DNA of 64,000 nt from an uncultured delta proteobacterium (GTDB taxonomy: Bacteria; Myxococcota; Myxococcia; SLRQ01), in the NCBI GenBank assembly GCA_963727485.1, contig CAVSGM010000011.1, positions 256,001-320,000 of the forward strand, in the 5' to 3' direction. A program made the position numbers and the translations under genes. Position 1 is the stretch's first letter, and each line of letters starts with the position of its first letter. The notes under the pieces are model-generated. The model made no database searches. It was not told where the DNA came from and saw only the letters and a program-made list of their open reading frames with translations. Shown piece after piece: positions 20,818-48,314 of this stretch.

Positions 20818-20892
20818 ATCTCGGCTCCCGGCGTTGTCCCCGGACGGATGGGGCGGGAGCATACATGGGCCCCCTGACGGTTGGGATCAAGG

Positions 20893-21945
20893 ATGCCCCC
20901 CGGTCACCGAAGCGCGCGTGTTCTCGCAGGTCCGGCGCTGGCCTGCCTCGCCGCCGCGGCCCTCTTCGGCGCCGCCACCCCGGCGGCCAAGGTCCTCCTC
21001 CGGGGCCTCGGGCCCCTGTCCCTGGCGGGTCTGCTCTACCTCGGCGCCGCGGTGGCGATGATCCCCTGGCTCGGCCGGGGCGCCGACCTGGGCCTGGTCG
21101 ACCGCCGGCAGGCCGGGCGCCTCGCCGGGGCGGTGATCCTCGGGGGGATCGCCGGGCCGGTGCTCCTCCTCCTGGGCCTGGCGCGCCTCCCGGCGGCCTC
21201 GGCGTCCCTGGGCCTCAACCTCGAGCTCCCGGCGACGGCGCTGATCGCCTGGGCCCTCTTCCACGAGCACCTGGGGCGGCGCACCCTCCTCGGCGGGGGC
21301 CTGGCGCTGGCCGCCGGGGCGCTGCTGACCCTCCCGGGGCACCTGGTCCTGGCCCCGGGCCTGGGGCTGGTGGCGCTGGCCTGCGTCGCCTGGGGCCTGG
21401 ACAACAACCTCACCGCGGTCATCGACGCCCTCACCCCGGCGCAGATCACCGCGGTGAAGGGCTCGGTCGCAGGGGCGGTGAACCTCGCCCTCGGCCTCGC
21501 CCTGGAGCACCCGCGCTTCGAGCCGGGGATCGTCGCCGGGGCCCTGGTCGTGGGGGCGCTGGGCTACGGGGCCTCGCTCACCCTCTACATTGGTGGGGCC
21601 CAGCGCCTCGGGGCCACCCGCTCCCAGATGATCTTCGCCGCCGCGCCCTTCATCGGCACGGTGCTGGCGTGGGTCGGCCTCGGGGAGCCGGTGCGGCCGG
21701 TGGAGCTCGGGGCCGGGGTGCTCATGGCCGCGGGGATCGCGGTGATGCTCACCGGCCGCCACGGCCACGTCCACACCCACGACGCCACGGTCCACACCCA
21801 CGGCCACCGCCACGACGACGGCCACCACGACCACGTGCACCCGGGGCTCCCCGCCTGGGTGTGGCACACCCACGCCCACGCCCACCGGGCCTTGACCCAC
21901 ACCCACGGCCACCTGCCGGACCTCCACCACCGGCACGGGCACTGA
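20893..21945 (+). CDS. DMT/EamA-family transporter with His-rich C-terminal tail
   Basis: About ten hydrophobic segments; LLYLGA, LNLE..ATA and WGLDNNLT; tail [27 protein letters not shown]...PDLHHRHGH. Confidence 0.85.
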
Positions 21946-22040: not shown

Positions 22041-23804
22041 ATGAAGCGCCTCTCCGGGCTCGCCTTGGTGGCAGCCGCGGGCCTCGCCCTCGCCATGCAC
22101 TGGGCCGTCGGGGCCCACTTCTTCCAGGGCTGGGAGCTCTCCCTGGGGAGCATCACCTTCCCGGCCCCGCGCTACGGCGCCTTCCTCCTCTCGTGGATGA
22201 CCTTCGGGAGCGTCGCCGCGGTCCTCGCCACCCTCGGGCTCGCTCGCCTCGCCGGTCCGAACCTGGCGCGGACCTTCGAGCGGTTCGCCGCCTACCCCGG
22301 GCGGCGCTTCGTGCCCCTGGCGGCCTTCCTCGCCTTCGCCACCGCGATGCTCGCCCGCACCTGGCTCCTCCACGGCGTGCCCCTCACCGACGACGAGGCC
22401 GCCTACCGGTTCATGGCCCAGGTGCTGGCCGGGGGGCACCTGACCGCCCCGTCCCCGCCGATGAAGCTCTTCTTCGACCGGGGGATGATGATCAACGACG
22501 GGCGCTTCCATGCCCTCTACTTCCTCGGCTGGCCCGCGCTCCTGGCGCCGTGGGTGCTGGTCCACGCCGCGGGCCTCGCCAACGCCGTCTACTCGGCGCT
22601 CACGGTCCCTGCGCTCTACCTCCTCGCCCGGCGTGTCGCCGGCCGGGGCTGGGCCAAGGTGACCGTCCTCCTCTTCGGCGTCTCCCCGATGGTCGCCGTC
22701 GGGGCCGCCGCCCTCGGGTCCCACCCCAGCGAGCTGATGCTCCTCGCCTGGCTCGCCTGGCTCGCCTTCCGCAGCGCCGAGGCCGAGGCGCCCCTCTGGG
22801 CCCACGCCGGGGTCGCGGTGGCCTTCGGGGCCGCGGTCTTCGACCGGCCCTTCACCGCGCTGGGCCTGGGGCTGCCCTTCCTGGTGGTCTGGGCCCTGGG
22901 CCTCCGGCGGCTCTCCGGCCGTCGGCGCCTGGCCGCGGCCGCGGTCTTCGCGGTGCCGGCGGTCCTCCTCGCCGGGGCCTTCTTCGCCGTGAACCTGGTG
23001 CAGAACGGCTCGCCCTCTCACCCTGGGGTACTGGCGCTACTACGCCTACGCCCGGGCCAATGGCTTCCGCTTCTCCCTGTGGCAGCACGCCATCCCCGGC
23101 GGTCACCCGGGCTTCCGCTTCGGAGACCTGGTGGGCGGCACCGCCTCCACCGCGGCCGGACTCCTCCGGTTCTCGGTGGCCTTCCTCGGCTGGCCCTGCT
23201 CGCTGGTCTTCGCCTTCTTCGCCGGTCGGACGCGGGAGACGGAGGTGTACTGGGCCTCGGCGGCCACCTTCGTCGCCGCGCTCCTGCTCACCTCCAACGC
23301 CGGCATCGACACCTACGGACCGGTGCACCTCGCGGAGCTCGCCCTGCCGGTGCTGATCCTCAGCGCCGCGGGCCTGGCGCGCCTCGATCGCTGGCTCGCC
23401 GGCCCGAGCCCGGGCCTCACCCTCGCCGCGGTGCTGGGGCTCTCGGGGGCCACGGCCGTGGGCTACCTGCCGGTCCGGCTCTCCGCGGTGTCCGCCATCG
23501 CCAGTCGGATTGCGGCGCCGTTCCAGGCGGTCGCGGGCATCCCCCGGGGTGAGCCGGCGGTGGTGTTCGCGCCGCGGCCCTTCGTGCGCTATTGCCACGG
23601 GCCCCAGGGCTTCGTCTTCTTCATGCCGACCAACGACCCGGGTCTCACCAACCCCGTGATCTGGGCGAACCATTCGGACCCCGGAAGGACCAGGCCCTCA
23701 TGGCCCACTTCCCCGGACGCCAGGGCTGGATCCTCGCCTGGGACCATTGTACGCCGCTGATCGTCTCCCTCGAACGGGCCCGGGCCGCGGCGCCGGACCC
23801 ATGA
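22041..23804 (+). CDS. GT-C fold (PMT/ArnT/GT39-like) membrane glycosyltransferase; two apparent frameshifts (~23018, ~23675)
   Basis: Polytopic protein with TDDEAAYRFMA acidic motif after an N-terminal TM helix and GWPALLA; coding frame resumes as GYWRYYAY... and GPRKDQALMAHFPGR..., stop at 23804. Confidence 0.7.
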
Positions 23805-23842
23805 CCCCCGTGCCATCCTCGTCGTCGTCCCGGAACCTCGCC

Positions 23843-24862
23843 ATGTCCCGCACCTCGATCCTCGTCACCGGCGGCGCCGGCTACCTCGGCGCCATCCTCG
23901 TGCCCAAGCTCCTCGACGCCGGCCACCGGGTCACCGTCCTCGACGCCCTCTTCTTCGGCGGGAAGCCCCTGGCCGCGGTGGCCGATCGCGAGGGCTTCGA
24001 GCTGGTGGCCGGGGACATCCGGGACACCGCCACCGTCGACGCCGTCCTCGCCCGGGGCTTCGACGGGGTCATCCACCTCGCCGCCATCTCCAACGACCCC
24101 TGCTCCGACCTCGACCCCGAGCTCACCCGGGCGGTCAACCACGACGCCACCGGGCACCTGATGCGCCAGGCCAAGGCCGCCGGGGTGCGCCGCTTCCTCT
24201 ACGCCTCGTCGGCGAGCGTCTACGGGATCAAGGACACCCCCGACGTCACCGAGGACCTGCCGCTGGAGCCCATCACCCTCTACGCCCGGTACAAGGCCGA
24301 GGGGGAGACGGTGCTCAACGGCCTCACCGACGACGGCTTCTGCGGGGTGTCGGTGCGGGCGGCGACGGTGTGCGGGTGGTCTCCGCGCCTGCGCCTGGAC
24401 CTCACCATCAACATCCTCACCCACCACGCCCTGACCAACGGCCGGATCCGGGTCTTCGGGGGCCGCCAGATGCGCCCCAACATCCACATCGAGGACCTCA
24501 CCGACTTCTACGTGAGGCTGCTCGACATCGAGGCCGAGAAGGTCAACGGCCGGGCCTTCAACGTCTCCACCGAGAACGCCACGGTGATGGCCCTGGCCGA
24601 GATGATCCGCGATCGGGTCGACCCGGCCATCGCCATCGACGTGGTGCCCACCGACGACCACCGCAGCTACCACCTCTCCGCCGCCCGGGCCCGGGCCGAG
24701 CTGGGCTTCGCCCCCCGCCACACCCTGGGCGACGCGGTGGACGACCTCAAGCGCGCCTACGCCGAGGGCCGGGTCCCGGACCCCGAGTCGCGGATCTACC
24801 GGAACGTGCAGCTGATGAAGCACGCGCCGGCGGTGTGGCAGAACCTGGGGGGCGCGCGGTGA
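23843..24862 (+). CDS. NAD-dependent epimerase/dehydratase (extended SDR)
   Basis: ILVTGGAGYLG, HLAAISNDP, ASSASVYG, YARYK (YxxxK), RPNIHIED. Confidence 0.92.
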   Translation: MSRTSILVTGGAGYLGAILVPKLLDAGHRVTVLDALFFGGKPLAAVADREGFELVAGDIRDTATVDAVLARGFDGVIHLAAISNDPCSDLDPELTRAVNHDATGHLMRQAKAAGVRRFLYASSASVYGIKDTPDVTEDLPLEPITLYARYKAEGETVLNGLTDDGFCGVSVRAATVCGWSPRLRLDLTINILTHHALTNGRIRVFGGRQMRPNIHIEDLTDFYVRLLDIEAEKVNGRAFNVSTENATVMALAEMIRDRVDPAIAIDVVPTDDHRSYHLSAARARAELGFAPRHTLGDAVDDLKRAYAEGRVPDPESRIYRNVQLMKHAPAVWQNLGGAR

Positions 24863-25959
24863 CCGTGATACGGGTGCCCTACGTCGACCTCGCGGCCCAG
24901 AACCGGCCGCTGAAGGCCGAGCTCCTGGAGGCGGTGGGCCGGGTCCTCGACCACGGGTGGCTGGTCAACGGCCCCGAGGTCGCCGACCTGGAGCGGCGCC
25001 TCGCCGAGCGACTCGGGGGCGGGCACGTGGTCGGCGTCGCCTCGGGGACCGCGGCCCTGGTCCTGGCCCTGCGCCTCCACGGCATCGGCCCCGGTGACGA
25101 GGTGGTGGTCCCCAGCCACTCCTTCGTGGCCACGGCCTCGGCGGTGGTCCTCGCCGGGGCGCGCCCGGTCTTCGCCGACGTCGACGAGGAGACCATGGTC
25201 CTCGACGCCGCCGCGGCCGAGCGGGCGATCACCGAGCGCACCCGGGCGGTGCTGCCGGTGCACCTCAACGGCTTCGCCGCCGACCTCGACGCCTTCACCG
25301 CGCTGTGCCGCGACCGGGACCTGGTGCTCCTCGAGGACTGCGCCCAAGCCCTGGGCGCCGCCTGGAAGGGCCGCCCGGTGGGCACCTTCGGCACCGGGTG
25401 CTTCAGCCTCCACCCCCTCAAGCCCCTGGCCGCCGCCGGGGACGCGGGCTTCGTCTGGGTCTCCGAGGCGGCGCAGGCCGAGACCCTGAAGCGTCTGCGC
25501 AACCTCGGCCTCGCCGACCGGGACCACCTGGCGCAGGTCAGCGGCAACGATCGCCTGGACACGGTGCAGGCGGCGATGCTGGGGGTGAAGCTCGGGCACC
25601 TCGACGCCTGGCTCGCCGCCCGCCGGGCCCACGCCGAGGCCTACCGCGCCGCCCTGGAGGGCCTGGTGCGGCTGCCCCCGGCGCGCCCCGAGTGCCAGCC
25701 GAGCCACAGCGTCTTCTGCGTCCGCCACCCCAGGCGCGACGCGCTCCTCGAGGGCCTGCGCGCCCGGGGCATCGACGCCAAGGTCCACTACCCGGTGGCC
25801 ATCCACCAGCAGGCCCCCTTCGCCGGGGACCCGCCGCCGTCGCTCCCGGTCACCGAGCAGGTGGTGCAGGAGATCGTGAGCCTCCCGGTGAGCCCCGAGC
25901 TCGACGTCGCCGGGCGCGAGGCGGTGATCGCGGCGGTGCAGGAGACCCTCGCGGCATGA
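24859..25959 (+). CDS. DegT/DnrJ/EryC1/StrS family PLP aminotransferase
   Basis: GTG start overlapping the SDR stop; SGTAAL, GPGDEV, PVHLNG, EDCAQALG, FSLHPLKPL (PLP Lys), SLPV. Confidence 0.93.
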   Translation: MTVIRVPYVDLAAQNRPLKAELLEAVGRVLDHGWLVNGPEVADLERRLAERLGGGHVVGVASGTAALVLALRLHGIGPGDEVVVPSHSFVATASAVVLAGARPVFADVDEETMVLDAAAAERAITERTRAVLPVHLNGFAADLDAFTALCRDRDLVLLEDCAQALGAAWKGRPVGTFGTGCFSLHPLKPLAAAGDAGFVWVSEAAQAETLKRLRNLGLADRDHLAQVSGNDRLDTVQAAMLGVKLGHLDAWLAARRAHAEAYRAALEGLVRLPPARPECQPSHSVFCVRHPRRDALLEGLRARGIDAKVHYPVAIHQQAPFAGDPPPSLPVTEQVVQEIVSLPVSPELDVAGREAVIAAVQETLAA

Positions 25960-27497
25960 CCGAGGCCTCGGAAAAGATCGTCACCCCCGAGGCCCTGGCC
26001 CGGATCCGCGCGGATCTCGAGGCCCAGGGCCGCACCGTGGTCCAGGCCCACGGCTGCTTCGACATCGTCCACCCCGGGCACATCCGCTACCTGCGCTTCG
26101 CCCGGGACCAGGGCGACGTCCTGGTGGTGAGCGTGAGCGCCGACGACGTGGTGGGCAAGGGCGCCGACCGCCCCTACATCAACGAGGACCTGCGCCTGGA
26201 GAACCTCGCGGTCCTGGAGTTCGTGGACTACGTGGTCCTCGATCACCACGCCTGGGCGGGGCCGATCCTGGAGACGGTCAGGCCCGACGTCTACGTGAAG
26301 GGCAAGGAGTACGAGACCGGCGGCGACCCGCGCTTCCTCCAGGAGAAGGACCTGGTCGAGGGCTACGGGGGCCGGGTGATCTTCGGCTCCGGCGACGTGG
26401 TGTTCTCCTCCACCGCCATCATCGACCGCTTCCGCGAGCAGTTCCGCCTCGACGCCGAGAAGACAAGGTTCTTCTGCCGGCGCCACGGGGTCACCCGCGC
26501 CGCGGTGGACGGCGCCCTCCGGGCCATCGGGGAGGCGCGGATCCTGGTCCTCGGCGATCCCATCCTCGACCGTCACATCCACTCGGAGATGGCCACCGTG
26601 GCCGCCGAGGCGCCGGTGCTCTCGGTGGTGCCGATGCACCAGGACACCTACCTCGGCGGCGGGGCCCTCATCGCCCGGCAGCTCGCCAACCTCGGGGCGA
26701 AGGCGGGCTACCTCACGGTCCTGGGTCGGGACGCCGAGGCCGAGGACTTCGCCGAGGGGCTCGCCGCCGGCGGGGTGACCCTCCACCGCCTCGAGGCCCA
26801 TCACCGGCCGGTGTTCGTGAAGACCCGGTACCTGGTCGACGGGAACAAGGTGTTCAAGGTCGACGAGGGGGCCTACTCGCCCCTGGCCGCGAGCGACGCC
26901 GCCGAGCTGGTCGCGCGCCTCGAGGCGTCGCTTGCGGGCTACGACGCGCTGGTGGTCACCGACTTCGGCTACGGGCTCTTCGGCGCCGAGCTCACCGAGG
27001 CCCTGCCCCGGATCTGCGCCGCCCAGGGCAAGCCCTACTACGTCGACGTGAGCCACAGCCGGCGCACCAACATCCTCAAGTTCCGTGGTCCGCGGCTGGC
27101 GACCCCCACCGAGGACGAGCTGCGCTTCGCCTTCGGCGATCCCGAGAGCGGGCTGTCCAACCTCGCCAGCCGCTACTACCGGGAGTCGGGCGCCGAGCAG
27201 CTGGTGGTGACCCTGGGCAAGCGCGGGGCCCTGCGCTTCGAGCCCGGGGAGGCCGGGGCCCGGCTGCGCACCGACCACCTCCCGGCCTTCGCCACCTACT
27301 CCGTCGACCCCATCGGCGCCGGGGACGTGTTCCTCGCCGGCGCCAGCGCCGCCGACGTCGCCCGGGCGCCCATGCCCGTGGGCATGTACCTGGGCAGCGC
27401 CCTGGCGGCGCTCCACGTGGCCCACCTGGGCAACGACCCGGTGCGGATGATTGACCTCCAGGCGTGGCTCGACGCCCGCCCCGATCTCGCGCCATGA
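25956..27497 (+). CDS. Bifunctional cytidylyltransferase-like + PfkB sugar kinase (HldE/RfaE-related, reversed domain order)
   Basis: N-terminal HGCFDIVHPGH and VYVKGKEY; C-terminal VLGDPILD, KTRY, DFGYG, VTLGKRGA, DPIGAGD. Confidence 0.85.
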   Translation: MTEASEKIVTPEALARIRADLEAQGRTVVQAHGCFDIVHPGHIRYLRFARDQGDVLVVSVSADDVVGKGADRPYINEDLRLENLAVLEFVDYVVLDHHAWAGPILETVRPDVYVKGKEYETGGDPRFLQEKDLVEGYGGRVIFGSGDVVFSSTAIIDRFREQFRLDAEKTRFFCRRHGVTRAAVDGALRAIGEARILVLGDPILDRHIHSEMATVAAEAPVLSVVPMHQDTYLGGGALIARQLANLGAKAGYLTVLGRDAEAEDFAEGLAAGGVTLHRLEAHHRPVFVKTRYLVDGNKVFKVDEGAYSPLAASDAAELVARLEASLAGYDALVVTDFGYGLFGAELTEALPRICAAQGKPYYVDVSHSRRTNILKFRGPRLATPTEDELRFAFGDPESGLSNLASRYYRESGAEQLVVTLGKRGALRFEPGEAGARLRTDHLPAFATYSVDPIGAGDVFLAGASAADVARAPMPVGMYLGSALAALHVAHLGNDPVRMIDLQAWLDARPDLAP

Positions 27498-28495
27498 GCG
27501 CCCGCGCCCGACGGGTGGCGCTGGGGGTCGTGGGCCTGGGGGTCTCGGCGCTCTTCCTCTGGCTGGCCCTGCGCAAGGTGCCGCTGGCGGCGGCCTGGAA
27601 CCGGATCGCCACGGTGAGCCTGGGGATCCTGGCGCTCTCCCTGGTCACCAAGCTCGTGGGCTTCGGGATGATGACGGGCCGCACCCGGACCCTCCTGAAG
27701 CCGGTGGCGCCGCTGGGCGTCGGGCCGGTGTTCCGCTCGGTGCTCCTGGGTTTTGCCGCCAACAACGTGCTCCCCGCCCGTCTCGGTGACGTGGTGCGCG
27801 TCGACTACCTGGGGCGACGCAGCGGCGCCGGTTTCGGGCCCTGCCTCGCGGTGGTCGCCTTCGAGCGGGTGGTCGACACCTTCTGCCTGGTGCTGCTCCT
27901 CGCCTGCGCCCTCCCGGTGCTCCTCGGCCGGGTGCACCCGGGCGTGGGCCTGGCGCTCCTGGTCGCCGGTGCGCTCCTGGCGATGGCCGCGGCGGTGATC
28001 GTCAGCCACCATCCCGACGCCTTCGTCCGCCTCGGCCGCCGCGTCGCCGGGGTCCTCGGCAGGGCCTTCGCCGACCGGGTGGAGCCGCTCCTCGCCCGCT
28101 TCGCCACCGGTCTGGCCGCGGTCTCCAGCACCCGTTCGGTGCTGGCGGTGATGGCCTTCTCGTTGGGCTACTGGGGCAGCTCCCTGGGGTCGGTGGCCCT
28201 GTGGATCCTGGCGTTCGGCCTGCAGCTTCCCTGGTATGCGCCCCTGGTGGTGCTGCTCTTCATCTCCCTGGGCACCCTGCTTCCGGCGTCGCCGTCGTTC
28301 GTGGGCACCTACGAGTACTTCGCCGCCGCCGGGCTCAAGCTCCTGGGGGTGGGGGCCACCGCGGCGACATCGTTCGCCCTGGTGGGCCACGTGGTGGCGG
28401 TGGTCCCCTTCACCCTCGTGGCGCTGCCGGTGCTGGTGCCCGACCTGATGCGCCGGCGGCGCCGGGAGGCCTCCCTGGGCGAGGCGCCGGGCTAG
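27494..28495 (+). CDS. UPF0104 / lysylphosphatidylglycerol-synthase TM domain flippase-like protein
   Basis: GFAANNVLPARLGDVVR, FERVVD, LPASPSFVGTYE; polytopic; ATGA overlap with the upstream gene. Confidence 0.88.
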   Translation: MSARARRVALGVVGLGVSALFLWLALRKVPLAAAWNRIATVSLGILALSLVTKLVGFGMMTGRTRTLLKPVAPLGVGPVFRSVLLGFAANNVLPARLGDVVRVDYLGRRSGAGFGPCLAVVAFERVVDTFCLVLLLACALPVLLGRVHPGVGLALLVAGALLAMAAAVIVSHHPDAFVRLGRRVAGVLGRAFADRVEPLLARFATGLAAVSSTRSVLAVMAFSLGYWGSSLGSVALWILAFGLQLPWYAPLVVLLFISLGTLLPASPSFVGTYEYFAAAGLKLLGVGATAATSFALVGHVVAVVPFTLVALPVLVPDLMRRRRREASLGEAPG

Positions 28496-29514
28496 GCGCC
28501 GGGCGCCTCGGCGATGAGCGGCTCCACGTCGATTGGCGGTACATGTGGAGGCCGGCTCGGAGCCCGTCCCGAGCCACGGCGTCCGCCACCGCCTCGCCCC
28601 GCAGGGCCCGGAGCGCCGCCAGGGGCAGGTTCACCCCCGCGTGGGCGTAGAGCCAGGGGCGCCCGGCGAGACGGGGGTTGATTCTCGGTCACCCGCGGGG
28701 CGCCGTCGGCGTCGCCTCGGAGGTCGACGCTGTAGACCCCGTGGGGCCGGTCGTCGATGGCCCGCACCGCACGCTCGGCGACGGCGTCGACCTCGGGCTC
28801 ACGCACGGTGCTGCAGAGCTTCACCTGGCCGGTCACCCCGGTGGGGACCAGGTCGGCGAGGAGGTACGACAGGCGCTCCATGGAGGCGCAGGCCACCCGC
28901 TGACCCTCGACGAAGACCGCCGACCAGTTGAAGTTCCGACCGGGGAGGAGGGTCTGGGCCATCCAGGGCTCCCCGGACGCGCCCCAGGCCGCCAGCCACC
29001 GCCGGGCCTCGGTGGCGTCGGCTGCGGCGAGGCTGCCCTTGCCGCTGGTGCCCACGCAGGGGCGGATCCACAGGGGGCTGCCCAGGGCCTCGAAGATGGC
29101 CTCGAGCTGGGCGGGGTCCCGGAAGGTCCGGGTCGCCGGGAAGGCCCCCGAGCCCGCCCCGGCGGCCTGGGTCCGGGCCTTGTCGAGGAGGAGGTCGAGC
29201 ACCGGGAGCGGCGCCAGCGCCGAGGGCACCGGGAGCGGGCGCCCCACCTGGCTCAACGCCGCCACCTCGAGGTCGAGGCCGACGAAGACGAAGTCCACCC
29301 CGGCCGCGGCCTCGCAGAGGGCGTCGACGTAGGCCCCGGCGTCCGCGCCCGCCGAGGGGAGTGACACCACCTCGTCGCAGAACCGCTCGCCGAGCCGCCG
29401 TCCCCAGGGGCTGGCGTCGGCACCGACGATCCGCAGGGTCGGGTCCTGGCGCAGGCACCGCGCCATGTCGATCCCCGGGCTCCCGCCGCAGCTGCTCACC
29501 AGCACCGTGGTCAT
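28492..29514 (-). CDS. ATP-grasp ligase (carbamoyl-phosphate-synthase-like); two compensating indels (~28683, ~28533)
   Basis: LDKART, PLWIRPCVGTSGKG, QTLLPG, YSVDL; shifting frame restores the TEINPRLAG motif and AGVNLP. Confidence 0.75.
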   Translation of the reverse strand: MTTVLVSSCGGSPGIDMARCLRQDPTLRIVGADASPWGRRLGERFCDEVVSLPSAGADAGAYVDALCEAAAGVDFVFVGLDLEVAALSQVGRPLPVPSALAPLPVLDLLLDKARTQAAGAGSGAFPATRTFRDPAQLEAIFEALGSPLWIRPCVGTSGKGSLAAADATEARRWLAAWGASGEPWMAQTLLPGRNFNWSAVFVEGQRVACASMERLSYLLADLVPTGVTGQVKLCSTVREPEVDAVAERAVRAIDDRPHGVYSVDLRGDADGAPRVTENQPPSRRAPLALRPRGGEPAPGGAPGPAGRGGGGRRGSGRAPSRPPHVPPIDVEPLIAEAPGA

Positions 29515-30989
29515 GGGTCCTCCCAGGGCACCAGGCGCCCGTCGCGAAACACGGGGACCACCTGGTGGGTGTCGAGCTGGGCGCAGTAGCGGACGTCCTC
29601 GGCGTAGCCGAGGCGGACCAGGTTGGCCCCCGAAGCCCCCCGGAAGAAGTCAGCCTCGAGACCGCGGGAGGCCCGCGGGACCGGGGCCTGGAGACGGGCG
29701 GTCGGCCCCATCGCCGCCAGGATCTCGCTCGCCGCCAGCTCATCCTCGAGGCACGCCTGGTTGTTGCGGCCGGCCATCAGCAGGGTGACCGGGCAGTCGC
29801 GCGCCTCGGCGAGGGCCAGGGCCCGGCGGCCCACGCTCCCGGCGTTGAGGGTGGTGCCGATGAGGACCAGGGCGTCCTCGCCGGCCGCCTCCAGGAGGCA
29901 CTCGGTGCCGTTGGTGGTGGTCAGCACCAGGGACCTGCCGGCGTAGGCCTCGCCCCGGGCGAGGAGCTCGGTGGGGCTGTTGCCGTGATCCAGCGTGGGG
30001 ATCTTGCGGCCCCCGCGCTCTCCGGCGGTGACGTCCCCGCGACACTCCTCGACCGAGGCCACCGCCCGCACCGAGCGCATCCCCATCTGAAGCGCGGTGA
30101 CGATGGTGGCGCTGGCCCGCAGGGCGTCGATGAGGACCACCACCCCGCCCCGGCCGCGGGCGGCGACGGCGCCGCTGACCCCCAGCTCCAGGAAGACCTT
30201 CACCCCGGGCATCTGGAAGTCCCGGAAGGTGTCCCCCCGGAGCCCGGTGCGCAGGGTCGCCAGGGAGAGGGCGTCGTCCGGGGCGATGTTGCCGAGGTTC
30301 ACCTGGTTGCCCAGGCGGCGGATCAGCCACACCTGCTGCGATTTGCGGGGGGCCTCGAATACCACCGCCGCCCGCCCCACGGCCTCGGTGATTCGGGCCA
30401 CCAGCTCCTCGATGGGCTCACCGGCCTCGTCGAAGATCCCCACGGTGCCCGACTCCCGGGCCTCGAGGATCACCCTCTCGGCCCCGGCGTCGAGCTCGGC
30501 CCGGAGGGCGGACACCCGCTCGGCGAGGCCAAGGCGGGCGTCGGCCTCGTGCTCCTTCTTGCCCACCTCGCTCCACACCGTGAGCCCCCGGGCCCGGGCG
30601 CGGTCGATGAGCCCGAGCTTCTCGTCCTCGGTCATGGGGTGGACGCCGTTGGAGACCTCCACCATGGGGAAGCCCAGCCGGACGGCCTCGTCGAGAAAGG
30701 CGTCGGCCCGGCCCTGGGCCAGGGCCACCTCGAGGAAGGTGCCGCCGGTGCAGGCCCGCACCTGGTGGGCCGCGAGGATGGCGAGCTTCTCCCGGACGAT
30801 CGTCTCGGGCTGGAGCCGTGCCGTCGCCCACCCGAGCTTGACCACGTCGATCCAGGGGTGGCTCACCGAGAGGAGGTCGGCGAGCCGCCCCGGACCCAGG
30901 CCCTTGTCGAGAACGGAGGTGATCCCGGTGAGGCGCGGCTTGGCCGGCAGCTCGGGGACGTCGATCATGGGGAACGCGTGACGACTCAT
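29511..30989 (-). CDS. comA-comB: Fused phosphosulfolactate synthase (ComA) + 2-phosphosulfolactate phosphatase (ComB)
   Basis: ComA half: KPR..GIT.VLDKG, VKLGWAT, GGTFLE, EVSNG, SEVGKK, ILEARESG, FEAP, VNLGNI, LR.GLRGDT. ComB half: IDALRASATI, GERGG, GNSP, TTTNGT, LED. Single uninterrupted ORF. Confidence 0.9.
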   Translation of the reverse strand: MSRHAFPMIDVPELPAKPRLTGITSVLDKGLGPGRLADLLSVSHPWIDVVKLGWATARLQPETIVREKLAILAAHQVRACTGGTFLEVALAQGRADAFLDEAVRLGFPMVEVSNGVHPMTEDEKLGLIDRARARGLTVWSEVGKKEHEADARLGLAERVSALRAELDAGAERVILEARESGTVGIFDEAGEPIEELVARITEAVGRAAVVFEAPRKSQQVWLIRRLGNQVNLGNIAPDDALSLATLRTGLRGDTFRDFQMPGVKVFLELGVSGAVAARGRGGVVVLIDALRASATIVTALQMGMRSVRAVASVEECRGDVTAGERGGRKIPTLDHGNSPTELLARGEAYAGRSLVLTTTNGTECLLEAAGEDALVLIGTTLNAGSVGRRALALAEARDCPVTLLMAGRNNQACLEDELAASEILAAMGPTARLQAPVPRASRGLEADFFRGASGANLVRLGYAEDVRYCAQLDTHQVVPVFRDGRLVPWEDP

Positions 30990-31228
30990 GGGATCTCGCC
31001 CTTGCGGAGCACGAAGACGTGCGCCATGGCGAGCGGCCAGCGTTCGCCGAGGAGCCGGTGGCCGGCGGTGGCGACGAGCTCGTTGGCGACCTGGAGACCC
31101 CGCCGCCAGTCGGGCTGGCGGCCGGATCGCGAGGGCACCACCGAGGTCAGGTGGAGGCCGGCGACCACCTCCGCCACCTGGGCGTATACCCGGGGGCGGG
31201 TCCCGGCCCCGCTGACCCGGCCGGTCAC
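30986..31228 (-). CDS. Small hypothetical protein (80 aa), possibly a gene remnant
   Basis: GTGA overlap with the GT2 stop and ATGA overlap with the comAB start. Confidence 0.45.
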   Translation of the reverse strand: MTGRVSGAGTRPRVYAQVAEVVAGLHLTSVVPSRSGRQPDWRRGLQVANELVATAGHRLLGERWPLAMAHVFVLRKGEIP

Positions 31229-31968
31229 TCCTCTCTACCTCGCTCCAGGAGCAGGTTGTTCCGGTAGTGGGCGACCGAGCGGTGACCCACGTAGACGTCC
31301 CGCACCGCCTTGAGGATCGACCTGGGGCGGAAGGCCTTGGAGCTGCCCTGGGTCCGGCCCCGGGCCACGAACCCGACCTCGCCGATGCGGAGCTTCGGGT
31401 CCCGGAGCAGGGCCTTGGCGATGAGCTCGGCGTTGAAGGCGTGCCCCGAGGACACCACCTCGATTCCCCGGAGGCACCGGGCGCGGTAGAGCTTCATCCC
31501 GTTGAGGTAGCGGTAGGGGAAGCCGTAGAGGAAGGCGCTCACGCTGGTGAAGGACTGGGAGGCGATGCGCCGGGGGATGGTGCGGATCACCGGGTTCTTG
31601 AGGTAGCCGAGGATCAGGTCGTAGCCGGCCCGCACCGCGAGGAAGTCCCGGATGGACTCGAAGAGGAACTCGTTGTCACCGGGGAGCACGGTCACCCAGC
31701 TGCTGGGGTCCACGGCCTCGAGGGCCTGGAGCACCGAGCGGCCGACGCCGAGGTTCTCCGGGTTCTGGCGCATCCGCACCCCGGGGTGCCGCTCGCAGAG
31801 CGCGCGCATCCGGTCCGCGGTCCGGTCGGCGGAGCCGTCGTCGACCAGGACCAGCTCCAGGTCCACGTCCAGGGTGGGGGCCACGGCGTGCACGGCGTCG
31901 ACCGTGTCCTCGATGTTCTCCGCCTCGTTCAGACAGGGGATGATCACGGTGAGGAGGTCACGGGGCAT
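31225..31968 (-). CDS. GT2 glycosyltransferase (polyprenol-phosphate/DPM1-like)
   Basis: VIIPCLNEAENI, VDDGSAD, NLGVG, PGD.E, R..GSSK. Confidence 0.88.
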   Translation of the reverse strand: MPRDLLTVIIPCLNEAENIEDTVDAVHAVAPTLDVDLELVLVDDGSADRTADRMRALCERHPGVRMRQNPENLGVGRSVLQALEAVDPSSWVTVLPGDNEFLFESIRDFLAVRAGYDLILGYLKNPVIRTIPRRIASQSFTSVSAFLYGFPYRYLNGMKLYRARCLRGIEVVSSGHAFNAELIAKALLRDPKLRIGEVGFVARGRTQGSSKAFRPRSILKAVRDVYVGHRSVAHYRNNLLLERGREE

Positions 31969-32065: not shown

Positions 32066-32094
32066 TTGACACCGGCCCTCCGGATCCCAATCAT
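32066..32094 (+). promoter_or_regulatory. Putative sigma70 promoter of the his operon
   Basis: TTGACA (32066-32071), 17-nt spacer, AATCAT (32089-32094), 6 nt before the hisD ATG. Confidence 0.5.
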
Positions 32095-44803: not shown

Positions 44804-45577
44804 TCAGTCCGCCGGCCGCCGGCCGATCACCACGAAGACCCGGTGGGGCACCTGGAGGGGCTCGGCGGGGAAGCGCTCGGCGAGGATGGCGTCGAGGGCG
44901 GTGTCGAAGGCGGCGACCGCCTCGGGGCCCAGGGCCGCGCCCACCCCGGCGCTGGCGCGGATCCGCCCCCGCCAGGCCGCGTGGGTGTAGGGCACGGCCA
45001 CGTCGTAGGAGAAGGTCTCCAGGTCCCGGAAGCCGGCCTCGCCCAGGTCCCGGAGCCACTGGGGGTGGAGCCCGCTGCCCCCGCCCATGGTCCACACCGG
45101 GTTGTGGTCGAGGATGAGCTGCTCGGTGGCGTCGACCAGGTTCCCGGGCAGGGGGATCCAGTCGAAGTGGGCGATGACGAGGTGGCCGTCGGGCTTCAGG
45201 AGCCGGGTGGCCTCGGCGGCGGCGGCGTCCCGGCGGAACCAGTGCCAGCACTGGCCGGCGGTCACCAGGTCGGCGCTCGCCGCCGGGAGGCCCGTGTCCT
45301 CGGCCTGGCCCACCCGGTAGCTCACCTTCACCGCGTCGCTCGCGTCGAGGCGCCGGGCCTCGTCGAGCATGGCCTCGGACAGGTCCACCCCGGTCACCCG
45401 GCACCCCCGGCGGGCGAAGCCCCGGGCGAGCGACCCGGTGCCGGTGCCCAGGTCCACCACCGACTTGCCGTGGACCCCGAGGCCGCGCTCGGCGAGGCGC
45501 CCGAAGAACGACTCGGGGAAGCCGGCGCGGTGGGTGGCGTAGTCGCTCGCCGTCCGGCCGAAGTCGATGGGGGTCAT
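44804..45577 (-). CDS. Class I SAM-dependent methyltransferase
   Basis: DFGRTASDY..HRAGFP, VDLGTGTG, GVDLSEAML, AGQCWHWF. Confidence 0.9.
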   Translation of the reverse strand: MTPIDFGRTASDYATHRAGFPESFFGRLAERGLGVHGKSVVDLGTGTGSLARGFARRGCRVTGVDLSEAMLDEARRLDASDAVKVSYRVGQAEDTGLPAASADLVTAGQCWHWFRRDAAAAEATRLLKPDGHLVIAHFDWIPLPGNLVDATEQLILDHNPVWTMGGGSGLHPQWLRDLGEAGFRDLETFSYDVAVPYTHAAWRGRIRASAGVGAALGPEAVAAFDTALDAILAERFPAEPLQVPHRVFVVIGRRPAD

Positions 45578-47265
45578 GGGCGCCTCCGTCCGGCCGCGGC
45601 CGGGGGACCGCAGGCGCGGTCGAGGGTGAAGGGTCGCAGCAGCTTCACGTAGTTGAGGGGCACCCCGAAGCGCCGGACGGTGGCCACCACCTGGCCGCCC
45701 ACCTCGTTCTCCCGGTCGCGGCGGGTGGTGGCGAGGAAGAAGTCGGCGAGGTTCCGGTTGCCGGTGCTCACCAGCCACCGGGGGAGGTAGTAGTTGGTGC
45801 TCTCCTGGCCGCTCTCGTGGAAGACCAGGAGCCGGGGCGGGGGCCGGCCGGCGCAGCGGGCCTTCACGTAGGCCTCGAGGCGGCCGACCGCGGCCTTGTA
45901 GCTGGCGCCCCAGTAGTCGGTCTCGAACTCGGAGGCGGCGCCGGGGAGCCCGCCCACCAGCCCGTTGAAGTAGACGTACTCGTAGGGGTGGTAGCGGACC
46001 AGGGTGGCGGCGAGGACCGCCAGGTAGAAGACCGTGAGCCCGGTGGCGAGGCGGCGCAGGGCCGGGCGGGCCCGGCCGAGGCGGCGGAAGAGGGCGTCGA
46101 GGGCGCTCCCCCCGAGGACCGCCAGGGGCGGCACCAGGAAGAGCATGTGCCGCAGCCCGTCGTAGAGGACCGCCCGGCTCACCAGGACCCAGACCACCGG
46201 GAGGACCACGGTCATCGCCACCACCCCGTGTCGCTGCGCCGCCGGGTCGAGGAGGCGCCGGCGGTCCCGGGCCAGGGCCAGGACGCCCACCGCGGCGCCG
46301 CCGAGGACCAGCGCCAGGAGGCCCTCGGGGAGGGCGATGGCGAGCCACAGGGGCAGGTAGTACCAGGGCAGCTTCGTGGCGTGGATCTGGGCCCCGAGGA
46401 AGCGCACCGGGTAGTCCCAGGGGAAGTGGCTCATGTGGGCCAGGGCCACGAAGGGGCGGAGGAGCGGCGAGGGCTGGACCCAGGGCCAGAGGAGGACCAT
46501 CACCCCCCAGGCCGGGACCGCGACCCGCGCCAGGCTCGCCACCGCCGACCGGGCCGGGGGCCAGAGGGCGCGCCAGCGGCCGTCGCCCCGCCCGCGCCAC
46601 CGCCCCCCCTGGAGCACCGGCCAGAGGACCACCAGGCCGAGCAGCCCCACCACGTAGGCGAGGAGGAGCAGGCCGCCGATGCGGATCCCCAGGGTGATCC
46701 CCACGACGACCCCGAGGGGCAGGGCCCGGCGCCAGGGGATCCGCGGGAGGGTGGGGAGGGCGGCGACCAGGAGGAGGACGCTCCACAGGTAGCCCACGGC
46801 AAACGGCGCGTCCTTGGGGTCGGCGAAGGCGTGGCCGAGGAAGCGGCCGCAGAGGACCAGGAGCACCGCCCCGAGCAGGCCCGCCCGGGGCCCGGCGAGG
46901 CGGCGGCCCAGGCGCCAGGCGCCGGCGACGCCGAGGATCCCCACCAGCGCGCCCAGGAGGTGGCGGGTCTCGAAGAGGCCCAAGGGCGAGATCCGGGTGA
47001 GGGCGGCGGCGACGAGGTCGAAGGCCGGGCCGTAGAAGCGCAGGTCGCGGTAGGTGAAGGCGCCGTGATCGTGGCCCAGGGTGGCGAAGTAGCGGAGGAC
47101 CAGCTCGCCGTAGTGCTGCTGGATCGACTCGTCCCAGGTGACGCCGAAGTCCCGGAACACCAGGAGGGCGCCCACGACCAGGGCCGCGAGGAGGACCCAG
47201 GCGGCGACGTCCCAGGGGTCTGCGGGCAGATGCCAGCGGCGGCTCGGGGCGTCGGAGGAAGCCAT
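45574..47265 (-). CDS. GT-C fold (GT39/ArnT-like) membrane glycosyltransferase
   Basis: DFGVTWDE, YGPAFD, GHAFADPKD, PWYYLP, LYDGLRH, HPYEYVYFN, ETDYWG; polytopic. Confidence 0.8.
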   Translation of the reverse strand: MASSDAPSRRWHLPADPWDVAAWVLLAALVVGALLVFRDFGVTWDESIQQHYGELVLRYFATLGHDHGAFTYRDLRFYGPAFDLVAAALTRISPLGLFETRHLLGALVGILGVAGAWRLGRRLAGPRAGLLGAVLLVLCGRFLGHAFADPKDAPFAVGYLWSVLLLVAALPTLPRIPWRRALPLGVVVGITLGIRIGGLLLLAYVVGLLGLVVLWPVLQGGRWRGRGDGRWRALWPPARSAVASLARVAVPAWGVMVLLWPWVQPSPLLRPFVALAHMSHFPWDYPVRFLGAQIHATKLPWYYLPLWLAIALPEGLLALVLGGAAVGVLALARDRRRLLDPAAQRHGVVAMTVVLPVVWVLVSRAVLYDGLRHMLFLVPPLAVLGGSALDALFRRLGRARPALRRLATGLTVFYLAVLAATLVRYHPYEYVYFNGLVGGLPGAASEFETDYWGASYKAAVGRLEAYVKARCAGRPPPRLLVFHESGQESTNYYLPRWLVSTGNRNLADFFLATTRRDRENEVGGQVVATVRRFGVPLNYVKLLRPFTLDRACGPPAAAGRRRP

Positions 47266-47373
47266 GGGCGGGCGCCATGGTGGCAGCGTCTCCGCCGAAG
47301 GAAAAGGGGACGCGGGGTCGCACCTCCACCCCGTCCCGCCCACCCCCCGGCGAAAAAATCCCCAACCCCGGTC

Positions 47374-47402
47374 TTGATCGATCCTGTGGACGGGCCTATA
47401 AG
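47374..47402 (+). promoter_or_regulatory. Putative sigma70 promoter
   Basis: TTGATC (47374-47379), 17-nt spacer, TATAAG (47397-47402), A-tract upstream. Confidence 0.6.
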
Positions 47403-47405
47403 CCC

Positions 47406-47532
47406 CCTCTTGATGGACTTCAGGCTTCCGAATAGTCGAACGGTTCCGCCCAAGCGGTCGGGGTGCGGCCCGTTGAAGTCCGACCAGCTCAAGAGGCGCT
47501 CGGGGATTGGCTCCCCGGGCGCCTTTTCTTTT
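47406..47532 (+). ncRNA. Candidate structured sRNA or attenuating leader (family not recognised)
   Basis: Nested pairings CCTCTTGA/TCAAGAGG, GGACTTCA/TGAAGTCC, TTCCGA/TCGGGG and CCGC/GCGG between a promoter and a terminator. Confidence 0.5.
47495..47532 (+). terminator. Intrinsic terminator
   Basis: GGCGCTCGGGGA-ttggc-TCCCCGGGCGCC followed by TTTTCTTTT. Confidence 0.8.
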
Positions 47533-47561
47533 GGCACCTGACGCCGCTGGAGGCACGGTTC

Positions 47562-48314
47562 GTGGACGAGCGCATCAACAAGCTTCTTCGACTCCAGGAG
47601 ATCGACATCGAGATCCGCGACCTTGAGCAGGCCGCCGCGGCCTACCCCGCGCGGCTCAAGGAGATCGACGACGAGCTCGCCGCCGATCGGGCGGTGAGTG
47701 ACGCCCGACAGGCCGAGCTCGACGAGCTCGAGAAGCAACGACGGAACATCGAGGCGAACATCCAGCTCCAGAAGGAGCAGGTCCGCAAGTGGGAGGCTCG
47801 CCTCGCCGAGATCAAGACTCCCCGGGAGTACGCGGCCCTCTCCCGGGAGATCGACATCGCCAAGAAGGGCATGAGGAACCAGGAGGAAGAGGTCCTCGGG
47901 CTCATGGAGCAGGCCGAGGCCCTGCGCAACGAGATCGAGAAGATCGAGCGCGAGATCCTCGAGAAGGAGAAGGGGCACGAGGCCGAGCGCACCGAGCTCC
48001 AGGACAAGCTCGCGCACCTCGAGAGCGAGACCCAGCGCCTCTCCGGGGGCCGGGACGCGGCCACCGAGGGCATCGACAAGCGCCTCCTGCGCCAGTACGA
48101 CCTCATCCGCAGCCGTCGCGCCGGCGTGGCCCTGGCGGCGGTGACCGAGGGCGCGACCTGCGGCGCCTGCCGGATGCGCATCCTCCCCCAGCTCTACAAC
48201 GACCTGGTCAGCGGGCAGGCGGGGATCGCGAAGTGCCCGAGCTGCAACCGGATCCTCTACGTGCCCGACGCCGACGACGAGGACGAGAACGTCGCCGACG
48301 AGGCCCACGCGTGA
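47562..48314 (+). CDS. Coiled-coil + C4 zinc-ribbon protein (DUF164/CT398-like)
   Basis: GGAGG then GTG 47562; LLRLQEID, REYAAL..EI, CGACRMRI.PQ, CPSCNRILY. Confidence 0.88.
   Translation: MDERINKLLRLQEIDIEIRDLEQAAAAYPARLKEIDDELAADRAVSDARQAELDELEKQRRNIEANIQLQKEQVRKWEARLAEIKTPREYAALSREIDIAKKGMRNQEEEVLGLMEQAEALRNEIEKIEREILEKEKGHEAERTELQDKLAHLESETQRLSGGRDAATEGIDKRLLRQYDLIRSRRAGVALAAVTEGATCGACRMRILPQLYNDLVSGQAGIAKCPSCNRILYVPDADDEDENVADEAHA

Follow-up and report, generated by a model that had tools for sequence, protein, structure and literature searches.

What use do bacteria that do not make coenzyme M have for ComA and ComB? Genes for the two proteins are common in such bacteria, and to our knowledge no role for their product has been agreed on. 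The question is raised in a particular form by a 64,000-nucleotide stretch of DNA from an uncultured delta proteobacterium (GTDB lineage Myxococcota, Myxococcia, SLRQ01; contig CAVSGM010000011.1 of assembly GCA_963727485.1, positions 256,001 to 320,000), hereafter the window, in which positions 22041 to 31968 hold a ComA-ComB fusion (ComAB) and an ATP-grasp ligase gene among genes for glycosylation. The reading that we prefer, and to which we give about an even chance, is that this locus would make an amino sugar carrying an N-sulfolactyl group and pass it, via polyprenyl phosphate, to a surface acceptor. The window is part of a 995-kb contig, and the assembly (5.55 Mb, 73% GC) is 93% complete, which is the scope of the genome-wide searches reported here.

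Gene content and organization of the locus

Searches of the locus proteins with Pfam and NCBIfam profiles recovered every domain named in a preliminary description of this DNA, each at its reported place, with corrections to the GT-C gene, the ATP-grasp gene and a small open reading frame (ORF). The genes are as follows.

22041..23804, + strand: GT-C membrane glycosyltransferase of the PMT_2 clan, with DDExxY in the first loop and three frames in the assembly (PMT_2 E 1e-4; 608-642-aa orthologues)
23843..24862, + strand: NAD-dependent short-chain dehydrogenase/reductase (SDR), likely a nucleoside diphosphate (NDP)-sugar C4 dehydrogenase or epimerase (Epimerase E 7e-39)
24859..25959, + strand: DegT/DnrJ pyridoxal phosphate-dependent aminotransferase (PF01041 E 9e-97)
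25956..27497, + strand: fusion of a nucleotidyltransferase and a PfkB kinase, resembling HldE but with the two domains in the opposite order (CTP_transf_like and PfkB)
27494..28495, + strand: UPF0104 flippase-like membrane protein (PF03706, LPG_synthase_TM, E 4e-43; TIGR00374 over cut-off)
28492..29514, - strand: ATP-grasp ligase with about 50 codons near the C-terminus out of frame (PRK12767 E 1e-9; orthologue model)
29511..30989, - strand: ComA-ComB fusion, phosphosulfolactate synthase and 2-phosphosulfolactate phosphatase (PF02679 and PF04029 over cut-off)
30986..31228 (ORF given as 30986-31234), - strand: 3' remnant of an S-adenosylmethionine (SAM) methyltransferase gene, its start overlapping the GT2 stop (62% to the L002 methyltransferase)
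31225..31968, - strand: short GT2, likely a polyprenyl-phosphate sugar synthase (PF00535 E 1e-17)

As had been described, these genes form two coupled operons that face each other: seven junctions have 4-bp overlaps (GTGA, ATGA, ATGA, CTAG, ATGA, ATGA and GTGA), the CTAG palindrome at 28492-28495 being shared by the stop codons of the facing operons, and the GT-C and SDR genes are separated by a 38-bp gap. A promoter scan found nothing inside the locus. Since its GC content (0.735) is close to that of the window (0.731), the locus is not conspicuous as foreign.

The ComA-ComB fusion

The ComA (E 3e-81) and 2-ph_phosp (E 3e-42) domains lie in one frame in the Pfam search. The ComA half scores 273 bits with PF02679 (cut-off 25.2) and is slightly under the cut-off of TIGR03849 (269.9 versus 280); the ComB half is over that of PF04029 (144.9 versus 26.4) and under that of the TIGR00298 equivalog (122 versus 175). 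ComA aligns to the Methanocaldococcus jannaschii enzyme 1qwg (E 3e-52), and its E141 and K145, the same in all 65 aligned rows, correspond to E133 and K137 there, which we take to be catalytic. Among 8000 candidates, 438 proteins are related to the fusion at E<=1e-50; all 120 of those listed have both domains, and the closest named relatives are from Myxococcota, Acidobacteriota and Gemmatimonadota. ComA-ComB is a genuine fused family. As given in the accessible text of PMC10562698, ComA forms phosphosulfolactate from phosphoenolpyruvate (PEP) and sulfite, and sulfolactate is quite likely the product of ComAB.

The preliminary description had allowed that the pair might instead serve a separate coenzyme M pathway. 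No match to the ComC family (PF02615) was found in the genome, and the best ComE match (TIGR03846) reached 32 bits against a cut-off of 221.5, ComD not having been searched; since ComC is not found and ComE is far under its cut-off, coenzyme M synthesis is not the purpose of ComAB. The fusion holds the only ComA of the genome, and its gene is coupled translationally to that of the ligase.

The ATP-grasp ligase and its tie to ComAB

The window ligase has no Pfam match and only a weak NCBIfam match (PRK12767, E 1e-9); it is 44-63% identical to intact relatives, and no close characterised relative was found. The model of an intact orthologue has an ATP-grasp fold (pLDDT, predicted local distance difference test, 95) that matches GAR synthetase 2yw2 (Z 25.6, root-mean-square deviation 3.1, 314 residues aligned) and PylC (Z 25.0), the top folds (GAR synthetase, PylC and carboxylases) being tied at 13-19% identity. 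Residues D262, E275 and N277 are invariant in 44 rows. The subfamily is small: of 7999 candidates, 48 reach E<1e-75. P0134, which looked like a ComB-ligase fusion, was not counted, since its N-terminus reads as frameshifted.

In 16 other fused loci, an ATP-grasp gene directly follows the fusion in eight and lies elsewhere in the genome in two; none was seen in four, and the contig is too short in two. The genes that follow the fusion come from three ligase subfamilies, the first being that of the window ligase, the second of the L-amino-acid-ligase type in pseudaminic-acid-like operons (L032, L111) and the third a distant ligase followed by a gene of the lactate-racemase family (L192). Moreover, 16 of the 49 ligase relatives come from assemblies whose longest contig has exactly the length recorded for one of the 120 listed ComAB relatives (0.36 expected; three of the 16 are seeds). 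Among 401 genomes of one class, four of the five with a close ligase are among the ten with a close kinase, an overlap for which the hypergeometric value of 1e-6 overstates the case, since kin are not independent. We suggest that ligases of this kind are likely to acylate amino sugars in general, and that where ComAB is coupled to them, as here, sulfolactate is likely the donor; ligation of sulfolactate to the sugar made by this locus appears probable.

Two loci (L032:3219-13745 and L111:466-10854) place the fusion and the L-amino-acid-ligase-type ATP-grasp gene amid PseB, PseC, cytidylyltransferase and NeuB genes, L111 having a sulfotransferase and WbqC and L032 an adenosine 5'-phosphosulfate (APS) kinase in addition. 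A sister ATP-grasp subfamily (L135-L157) occurs with a HAD phosphatase, a WbmS-like or amidohydrolase deacylase and GT2, often fused. At L126:9460-11989 a transposase gene of the Mutator family interrupts the ligase orthologue of genome G705, and the adjoining GT2 and flippase genes are fragmented.

The predicted sugar-making enzymes

The SDR, which is 61-64% identical in seven core loci, has 6vo6 as its best PDB match (E 7e-38), ahead of the rest by ten orders of magnitude; the segment before SVYG is ASSAS versus PNTNS. We take 6vo6 to be Cj1427, a GDP-heptose C4 dehydrogenase, the link between code and gene being our assumption. According to the accessible text of PMC10680097, Cj1427 oxidises GDP-manno-heptose at C4 with 2-oxoglutarate, and an SDR that used 2-oxoglutarate would couple neatly to a DegT enzyme that used glutamate. 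In the DegT protein D160 and K188 are invariant in 11 aligned rows; the best PDB matches are 7b0d, 2oga and WbpE, and the best NCBIfam match is ArnB, at 215 against an equivalog cut-off of 631. The title of 7b0d names a scyllo-inositol transaminase, and the preliminary description had offered an amino sugar or an aminocyclitol; we retain the former and set the aminocyclitol aside, since the nucleotidyltransferase and GT2 favour a nucleotide sugar and the enzymes point to a nucleotide-heptose.

The kinase fusion matches rfaE_dom_II and rfaE_dom_I below cut-off. Its scores with the HldE equivalogs are 145.7 against 345 (kinase) and 110.2 against 181.5 (adenylyltransferase), with the domain order reversed, and its best structures are the heptose-7-phosphate kinase 4e84 and the partner transferase 5x9q. 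Of 8000 candidates, 797 are related to it at E<=1e-100. The kinase gene goes with one for a HAD or GlpX phosphatase in L002, L126, L131, L161 and L179-L186, much as the phosphatase GmhB partners HldE, and more distant kinase/SDR pairs adjoin SIS and HAD genes (L189, L190). Against a heptose, neither GmhA nor a close orthologue of these phosphatases was found in the genome, although it has a standard rfaE/heptosyltransferase/lpxK locus, and DegT also resembles C3 enzymes. That the sugar is a heptose is, from these matches, an evenly balanced proposition.

The predicted lipid-carrier enzymes

The GT-C protein has one weak Pfam match (PMT_2, E 1e-4), its atlas neighbours are PMT_2 clusters, and its family comprises 220 clusters at E<=1e-30; a 115-row profile gave no PDB sequence match. 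The UPF0104 protein has seven hydrophobic stretches. For GT2, in which no hydrophobic stretch was detected, the best NCBIfam matches are PgfS and a dolichyl-phosphate hexose transferase, both weak and below cut-off, and the score with the ArnC equivalog (PRK10714) is 24.9 against 529; its orthologues in core loci are 46-64% identical. Taken as a set, these proteins very likely give the module a lipid-carrier core. A second, weak PMT_2-type membrane protein is encoded at window 45577-47574 (-), and no match to a paralogue was found in the genome.

Occurrence in other genomes

The two operons, whose pairing underlay the preliminary description, do occur together elsewhere. A Gemmatimonadaceae locus (L002) has every gene, in another order, together with the full methyltransferase and a HAD phosphatase; L161 (GT-C gene, then SDR-DegT-kinase-GlpX-GT2-ComAB) lacks only the ligase, which stands beside a second DegT gene on another contig of the same genome; and L131 has all but ComAB. 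In an Acidobacteriota locus (L001) ComAB and the ligase occur with DegT, Gfo/Idh/MocA, methyltransferase, flippase-like, GT2-like and GT-C-like ORFs, and in L026 with GT2 and GT-C genes. The same neighbourhood recurs in three phyla.

The fusion was found in none of the 40 nearest relatives, two of which have distant ComA matches; its distribution is thus patchy. In the phylum sample ComA occurs in 17 of 400 other genomes, mostly linked to PrpD or placed with gamma-glutamyltranspeptidase and a glutathionylspermidine-synthase-like ligase, L111 being a fusion in a sugar locus; in G198 (L120) ComA/ComB lie near DegT and PseB-like genes. A metagenome scan returned mostly unfused ComA, a viral scan three loci, none with ComAB, and a plasmid search 56 records, two of which cover most of ComAB.

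Close orthologues of the kinase fusion are present in ten of the 401 genomes of one class, and six of the ten carry HAD, SDR, DegT, kinase, flippase, GT2 and GT-C genes together. Genome-wide searches of these six gave no match to ComA, ComB or the close ligase; each of their core loci has a sulfotransferase-like gene instead (three called by Pfam, two by 75-77% identity to one of those three, and one seen as a fragment of 95 residues where the locus ends), and some also carry GNAT, WbqC or methyltransferase genes. We suggest that a core of oxidoreductase, DegT, HldE-like kinase/nucleotidyltransferase, flippase, GT2 and GT-C likely handles an amino-heptose, and we read ComAB and the ligase as an exchangeable tailoring cassette on this more widespread core. 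Our verdict is that the module is real, conserved and seemingly uncharacterised, and that it probably serves surface glycosylation.

Frameshifts and the methyltransferase remnant

The families assigned to the GT-C and ATP-grasp genes in the preliminary description stand, but it missed that each gene has two frameshifts in this assembly. The GT-C gene changes frame twice, near 23013 and near 23680, and its third and last frame ends at 23804; intact orthologues of 608-642 aa align to all three pieces, and the displaced frame keeps high third-codon GC. A 355-base short-read contig (run X3) covers 22971-23326 without mismatches and with a single gap, and another (run X2) omits one base at 23013. 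Since both lack one base relative to the window at this first break, it is probably an assembly error; such coverage is shown for this one of the four frameshifts. The runs hold small shares only, and we therefore make no claim on habitat.

In the ATP-grasp gene the frame is lost near 28680, a little way into the conserved EINPR motif. Over 28685-28533 the relatives match another frame at 76%, and the end of the ligase is back in the first frame, with the second break at about 28540, so that the roughly 50 out-of-frame codons include part of the conserved motif. What had been described as a small ORF is not a gene of its own; it corresponds to the final fifth of a gene for a SAM methyltransferase, matching residues 237-288 of the 292-aa L002 protein at 62%. 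The same methyltransferase is whole in L002, L005, L026 and L131.

A proposed pathway and its alternatives

On our preferred reading, the kinase/nucleotidyltransferase, with a phosphatase encoded elsewhere, would make a nucleotide sugar, most likely an NDP-heptose, which the SDR may oxidise to a keto sugar for amination by DegT. From family knowledge, ComA would join sulfite to PEP, and the fused ComB would dephosphorylate the product to 3-sulfolactate; the ATP-grasp enzyme would then activate the sulfolactate carboxylate and form an amide with the sugar amine, a product that the relatives would also methylate. By analogy with the Arn system, GT2 would load polyprenyl phosphate, the UPF0104 protein would flip the loaded carrier, and GT-C would transfer the sugar to an acceptor, which may be lipopolysaccharide, another glycolipid or a protein. 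More tentatively, and as a proposition that we hold somewhat doubtful, Myxococcota, Gemmatimonadota and Acidobacteriota may share an undescribed Arn-like route in which an amino-heptose travels via polyprenyl phosphate to the surface, bearing a swappable group: sulfate derived from 3'-phosphoadenosine 5'-phosphosulfate, or amide-linked sulfolactate, whose C-S bond would be sulfatase-proof.

Several findings weigh against the sulfolactyl pathway. L131 has the whole module, ligase included, without ComAB. Of the genomes approached from the ligase (G705, G1071, G1063, G869 and G806), only G1063 has the fusion (one of five); no ComA match was found in G705, G1071 or G869, and the one ComA seen in G806 is distant and differently placed. 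A further 24 more distant ligase loci mostly hold HAD phosphatases, deacetylase-like genes and GT2s, with ComA in one of 22 genomes. No ligase was seen in the fused loci L027, L028, L029 and L033, two of which lie behind a sulfide-dehydrogenase gene and have no glycan genes. The genome searches gave no sulfite-making enzyme, no GmhA and no close partner phosphatase; the GT-C and ligase genes are frameshifted, and the methyltransferase is a remnant. The best structures of DegT include C3 aminotransferases, so that the amine need not be at C4. Kinship among the six genomes with sulfotransferase genes may reduce them to one or two independent cases. The ligase might then add an ordinary acid (glycerate, lactate or an amino acid) or several, with ComAB optional and sulfolactate one donor or used elsewhere, and this would agree with the close ligases that have no ComA match, with the placing of the G1071 ligase among ComAB-linked ones in a quick tree, and with the pairing of the sister subfamily with HAD phosphatases. 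We nevertheless regard it as rather unlikely, given that the ligase directly adjoins the fusion in eight of 16 loci and in three subfamilies, with 4-bp coupling here, that the ComA-less genomes are assemblies of unstated completeness and that a transposase gene interrupts the ligase of G705. It is unlikely, too, that ComAB feeds the ligase with a different group (phosphosulfolactate ligated before ComB acts, the product of another ComA nucleophile, or another amine or hydroxyl as acceptor). Such a variant would accord with a genome in which neither AprA nor a sulfite reductase domain was found, and in which the search for a CysH-like reductase gave only a cysD-like gene adjacent to cysN. It would also accord with the ComB score below its equivalog cut-off, and with the other ComA-ComB pairs that accompany glutathionylspermidine-synthase-like ligases and no sugar genes. 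Against it stand the closeness of ComA to a characterised enzyme, the 2-hydroxy-acid racemase-family gene after the ligase in L192, and the YeeE-type sulfur transporters encoded in the genome and also near ComAB in L002 and L003; sulfite derived from thiosulfate is possible.

The pathway might also work in the relatives while this copy is decaying and nonfunctional. In this assembly GT-C and the ligase are frameshifted (four frameshifts over two genes) and the methyltransferase is reduced to a remnant, its N-terminal part being absent from a search of the whole assembly; moreover, neither GmhA nor a close orthologue of the partner HAD or GlpX phosphatase was found in the genome. The X3 and X2 contigs, which point to assembly error at the first break, and the high third-codon GC of the displaced GT-C frame speak for an intact copy, and we judge decay improbable. 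Least probable by far, and largely refuted, is that ComAB serves coenzyme M or sulfolipid synthesis and lies here by chance: ComA and ComB do catalyse the first two steps of archaeal coenzyme M synthesis, but the results with ComC and ComE, the coupling of the genome's sole ComA to the ligase and the recurrence of the neighbourhood in three phyla argue against it.

Comparison with known systems

In the Arn route to 4-amino-4-deoxy-L-arabinose (Ara4N), a nucleotide sugar is oxidised, transaminated and N-acylated, a GT2 enzyme passes the sugar to polyprenyl phosphate, and the product is flipped and transferred by a GT-C enzyme. The accessible text of PMC4244539 assigns this lipid A modification to the arnBCADTEF operon. 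The locus would share the plan of oxidation, transamination, acylation, loading, flipping and transfer, and ArnB is the best NCBIfam match of DegT; however, its proteins miss all Arn equivalog cut-offs, no formyltransferase or deformylase domain was found among them in the Pfam and NCBIfam searches, it has its own kinase/nucleotidyltransferase, ATP-grasp ligase and UPF0104 flippase, and the predicted group is anionic whereas that of Arn is cationic. Both domains of ComAB align over their length to ComA/ComB of archaeal coenzyme M synthesis and to Bacillus YitD/YitC (1qwg, 1u83, 1vr0), from which the locus version differs in being fused, in the absence of ComC and ComE from the search results (ComD not searched) and in its coupling to a ligase in a glycosylation locus.

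The best structures, 6vo6 (on the naming assumed above), 4e84 and 5x9q, liken the sugar enzymes to the Campylobacter capsule heptose pathway (Cj1427) and to HldE/HldA-HldC. The keto sugar here would be aminated, whereas there it is epimerised and reduced, and in contrast to HldE the fusion is reversed in domain order and the locus has no GmhA. Oxidation of a heptose at C4' followed by transamination is described for septacidin (SepI, SepG) in the accessible text of PMC9978623; by that description septacidin differs in being an antibiotic nucleoside made with an FAD oxidase, and in having no lipid carrier and no sulfonate. Look-ups for a lipid-carrier heptose core gave no match. Roles for ATP-grasp amidoligases in polysaccharide loci were reportedly proposed by Iyer et al. 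in 2009. The accessible text of PMC4000134 names an 'ATP-grasp amino acyl ligase' among the genes of a sugar locus in Clostridium, and the accessible text on such amidoligases names no sulfolactate donor, unlike the locus described here. In the literature covered, to which most subscription journals and supplements are external, no report was found of sulfolactyl decoration of sugars or of ComA with ATP-grasp.

The locus suggests a concrete use for ComA/ComB that could be reconstituted with six soluble enzymes, the product being a defined amino sugar that carries sulfolactate in amide linkage. If the preferred reading is true, both the sulfonated sugar and the reaction of the ATP-grasp enzyme would be new, the pathway would be a counterpart of the Ara4N route with the charge reversed, and microbes of soil and sediment would have an additional sink for sulfite. 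With its 797 kinase relatives and 220 GT-C clusters, the core seems uncharacterised in its own right.

Other ComA genes and flanking genes

A distant ComA subfamily, 25-31% identical to the window ComA, lies directly behind PrpD/MmgE genes in seven loci (L106-L110, L113, L114), which suggests a different reaction. ComA and ComB occur with gamma-glutamyltranspeptidase and a glutathionylspermidine-synthase-like ligase in L115-L119 and L162, possibly as a second sulfolactyl-amide module without sugar genes. An unfused ComA followed by a histidine phosphatase is found in two polysaccharide loci (L052, L075) with DegT, a PglF-like dehydratase, LytR and Wzx, and a similar DegT spacing is seen in L084 and five more loci. 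In L028 and L029 a gene for a flavocytochrome c sulfide dehydrogenase immediately precedes the fusion, on short contigs without glycan genes.

The locus is flanked by an EamA gene on one side and the his operon on the other. The EamA transporter, which has a His-rich tail, is encoded at window 20881-21945 (+), just upstream of the GT-C gene, and is probably outside the module, since none was seen in related loci. A sigma-70-like promoter (TTGACA-17-AATCAT) precedes hisD at window 32066-32094 (+).

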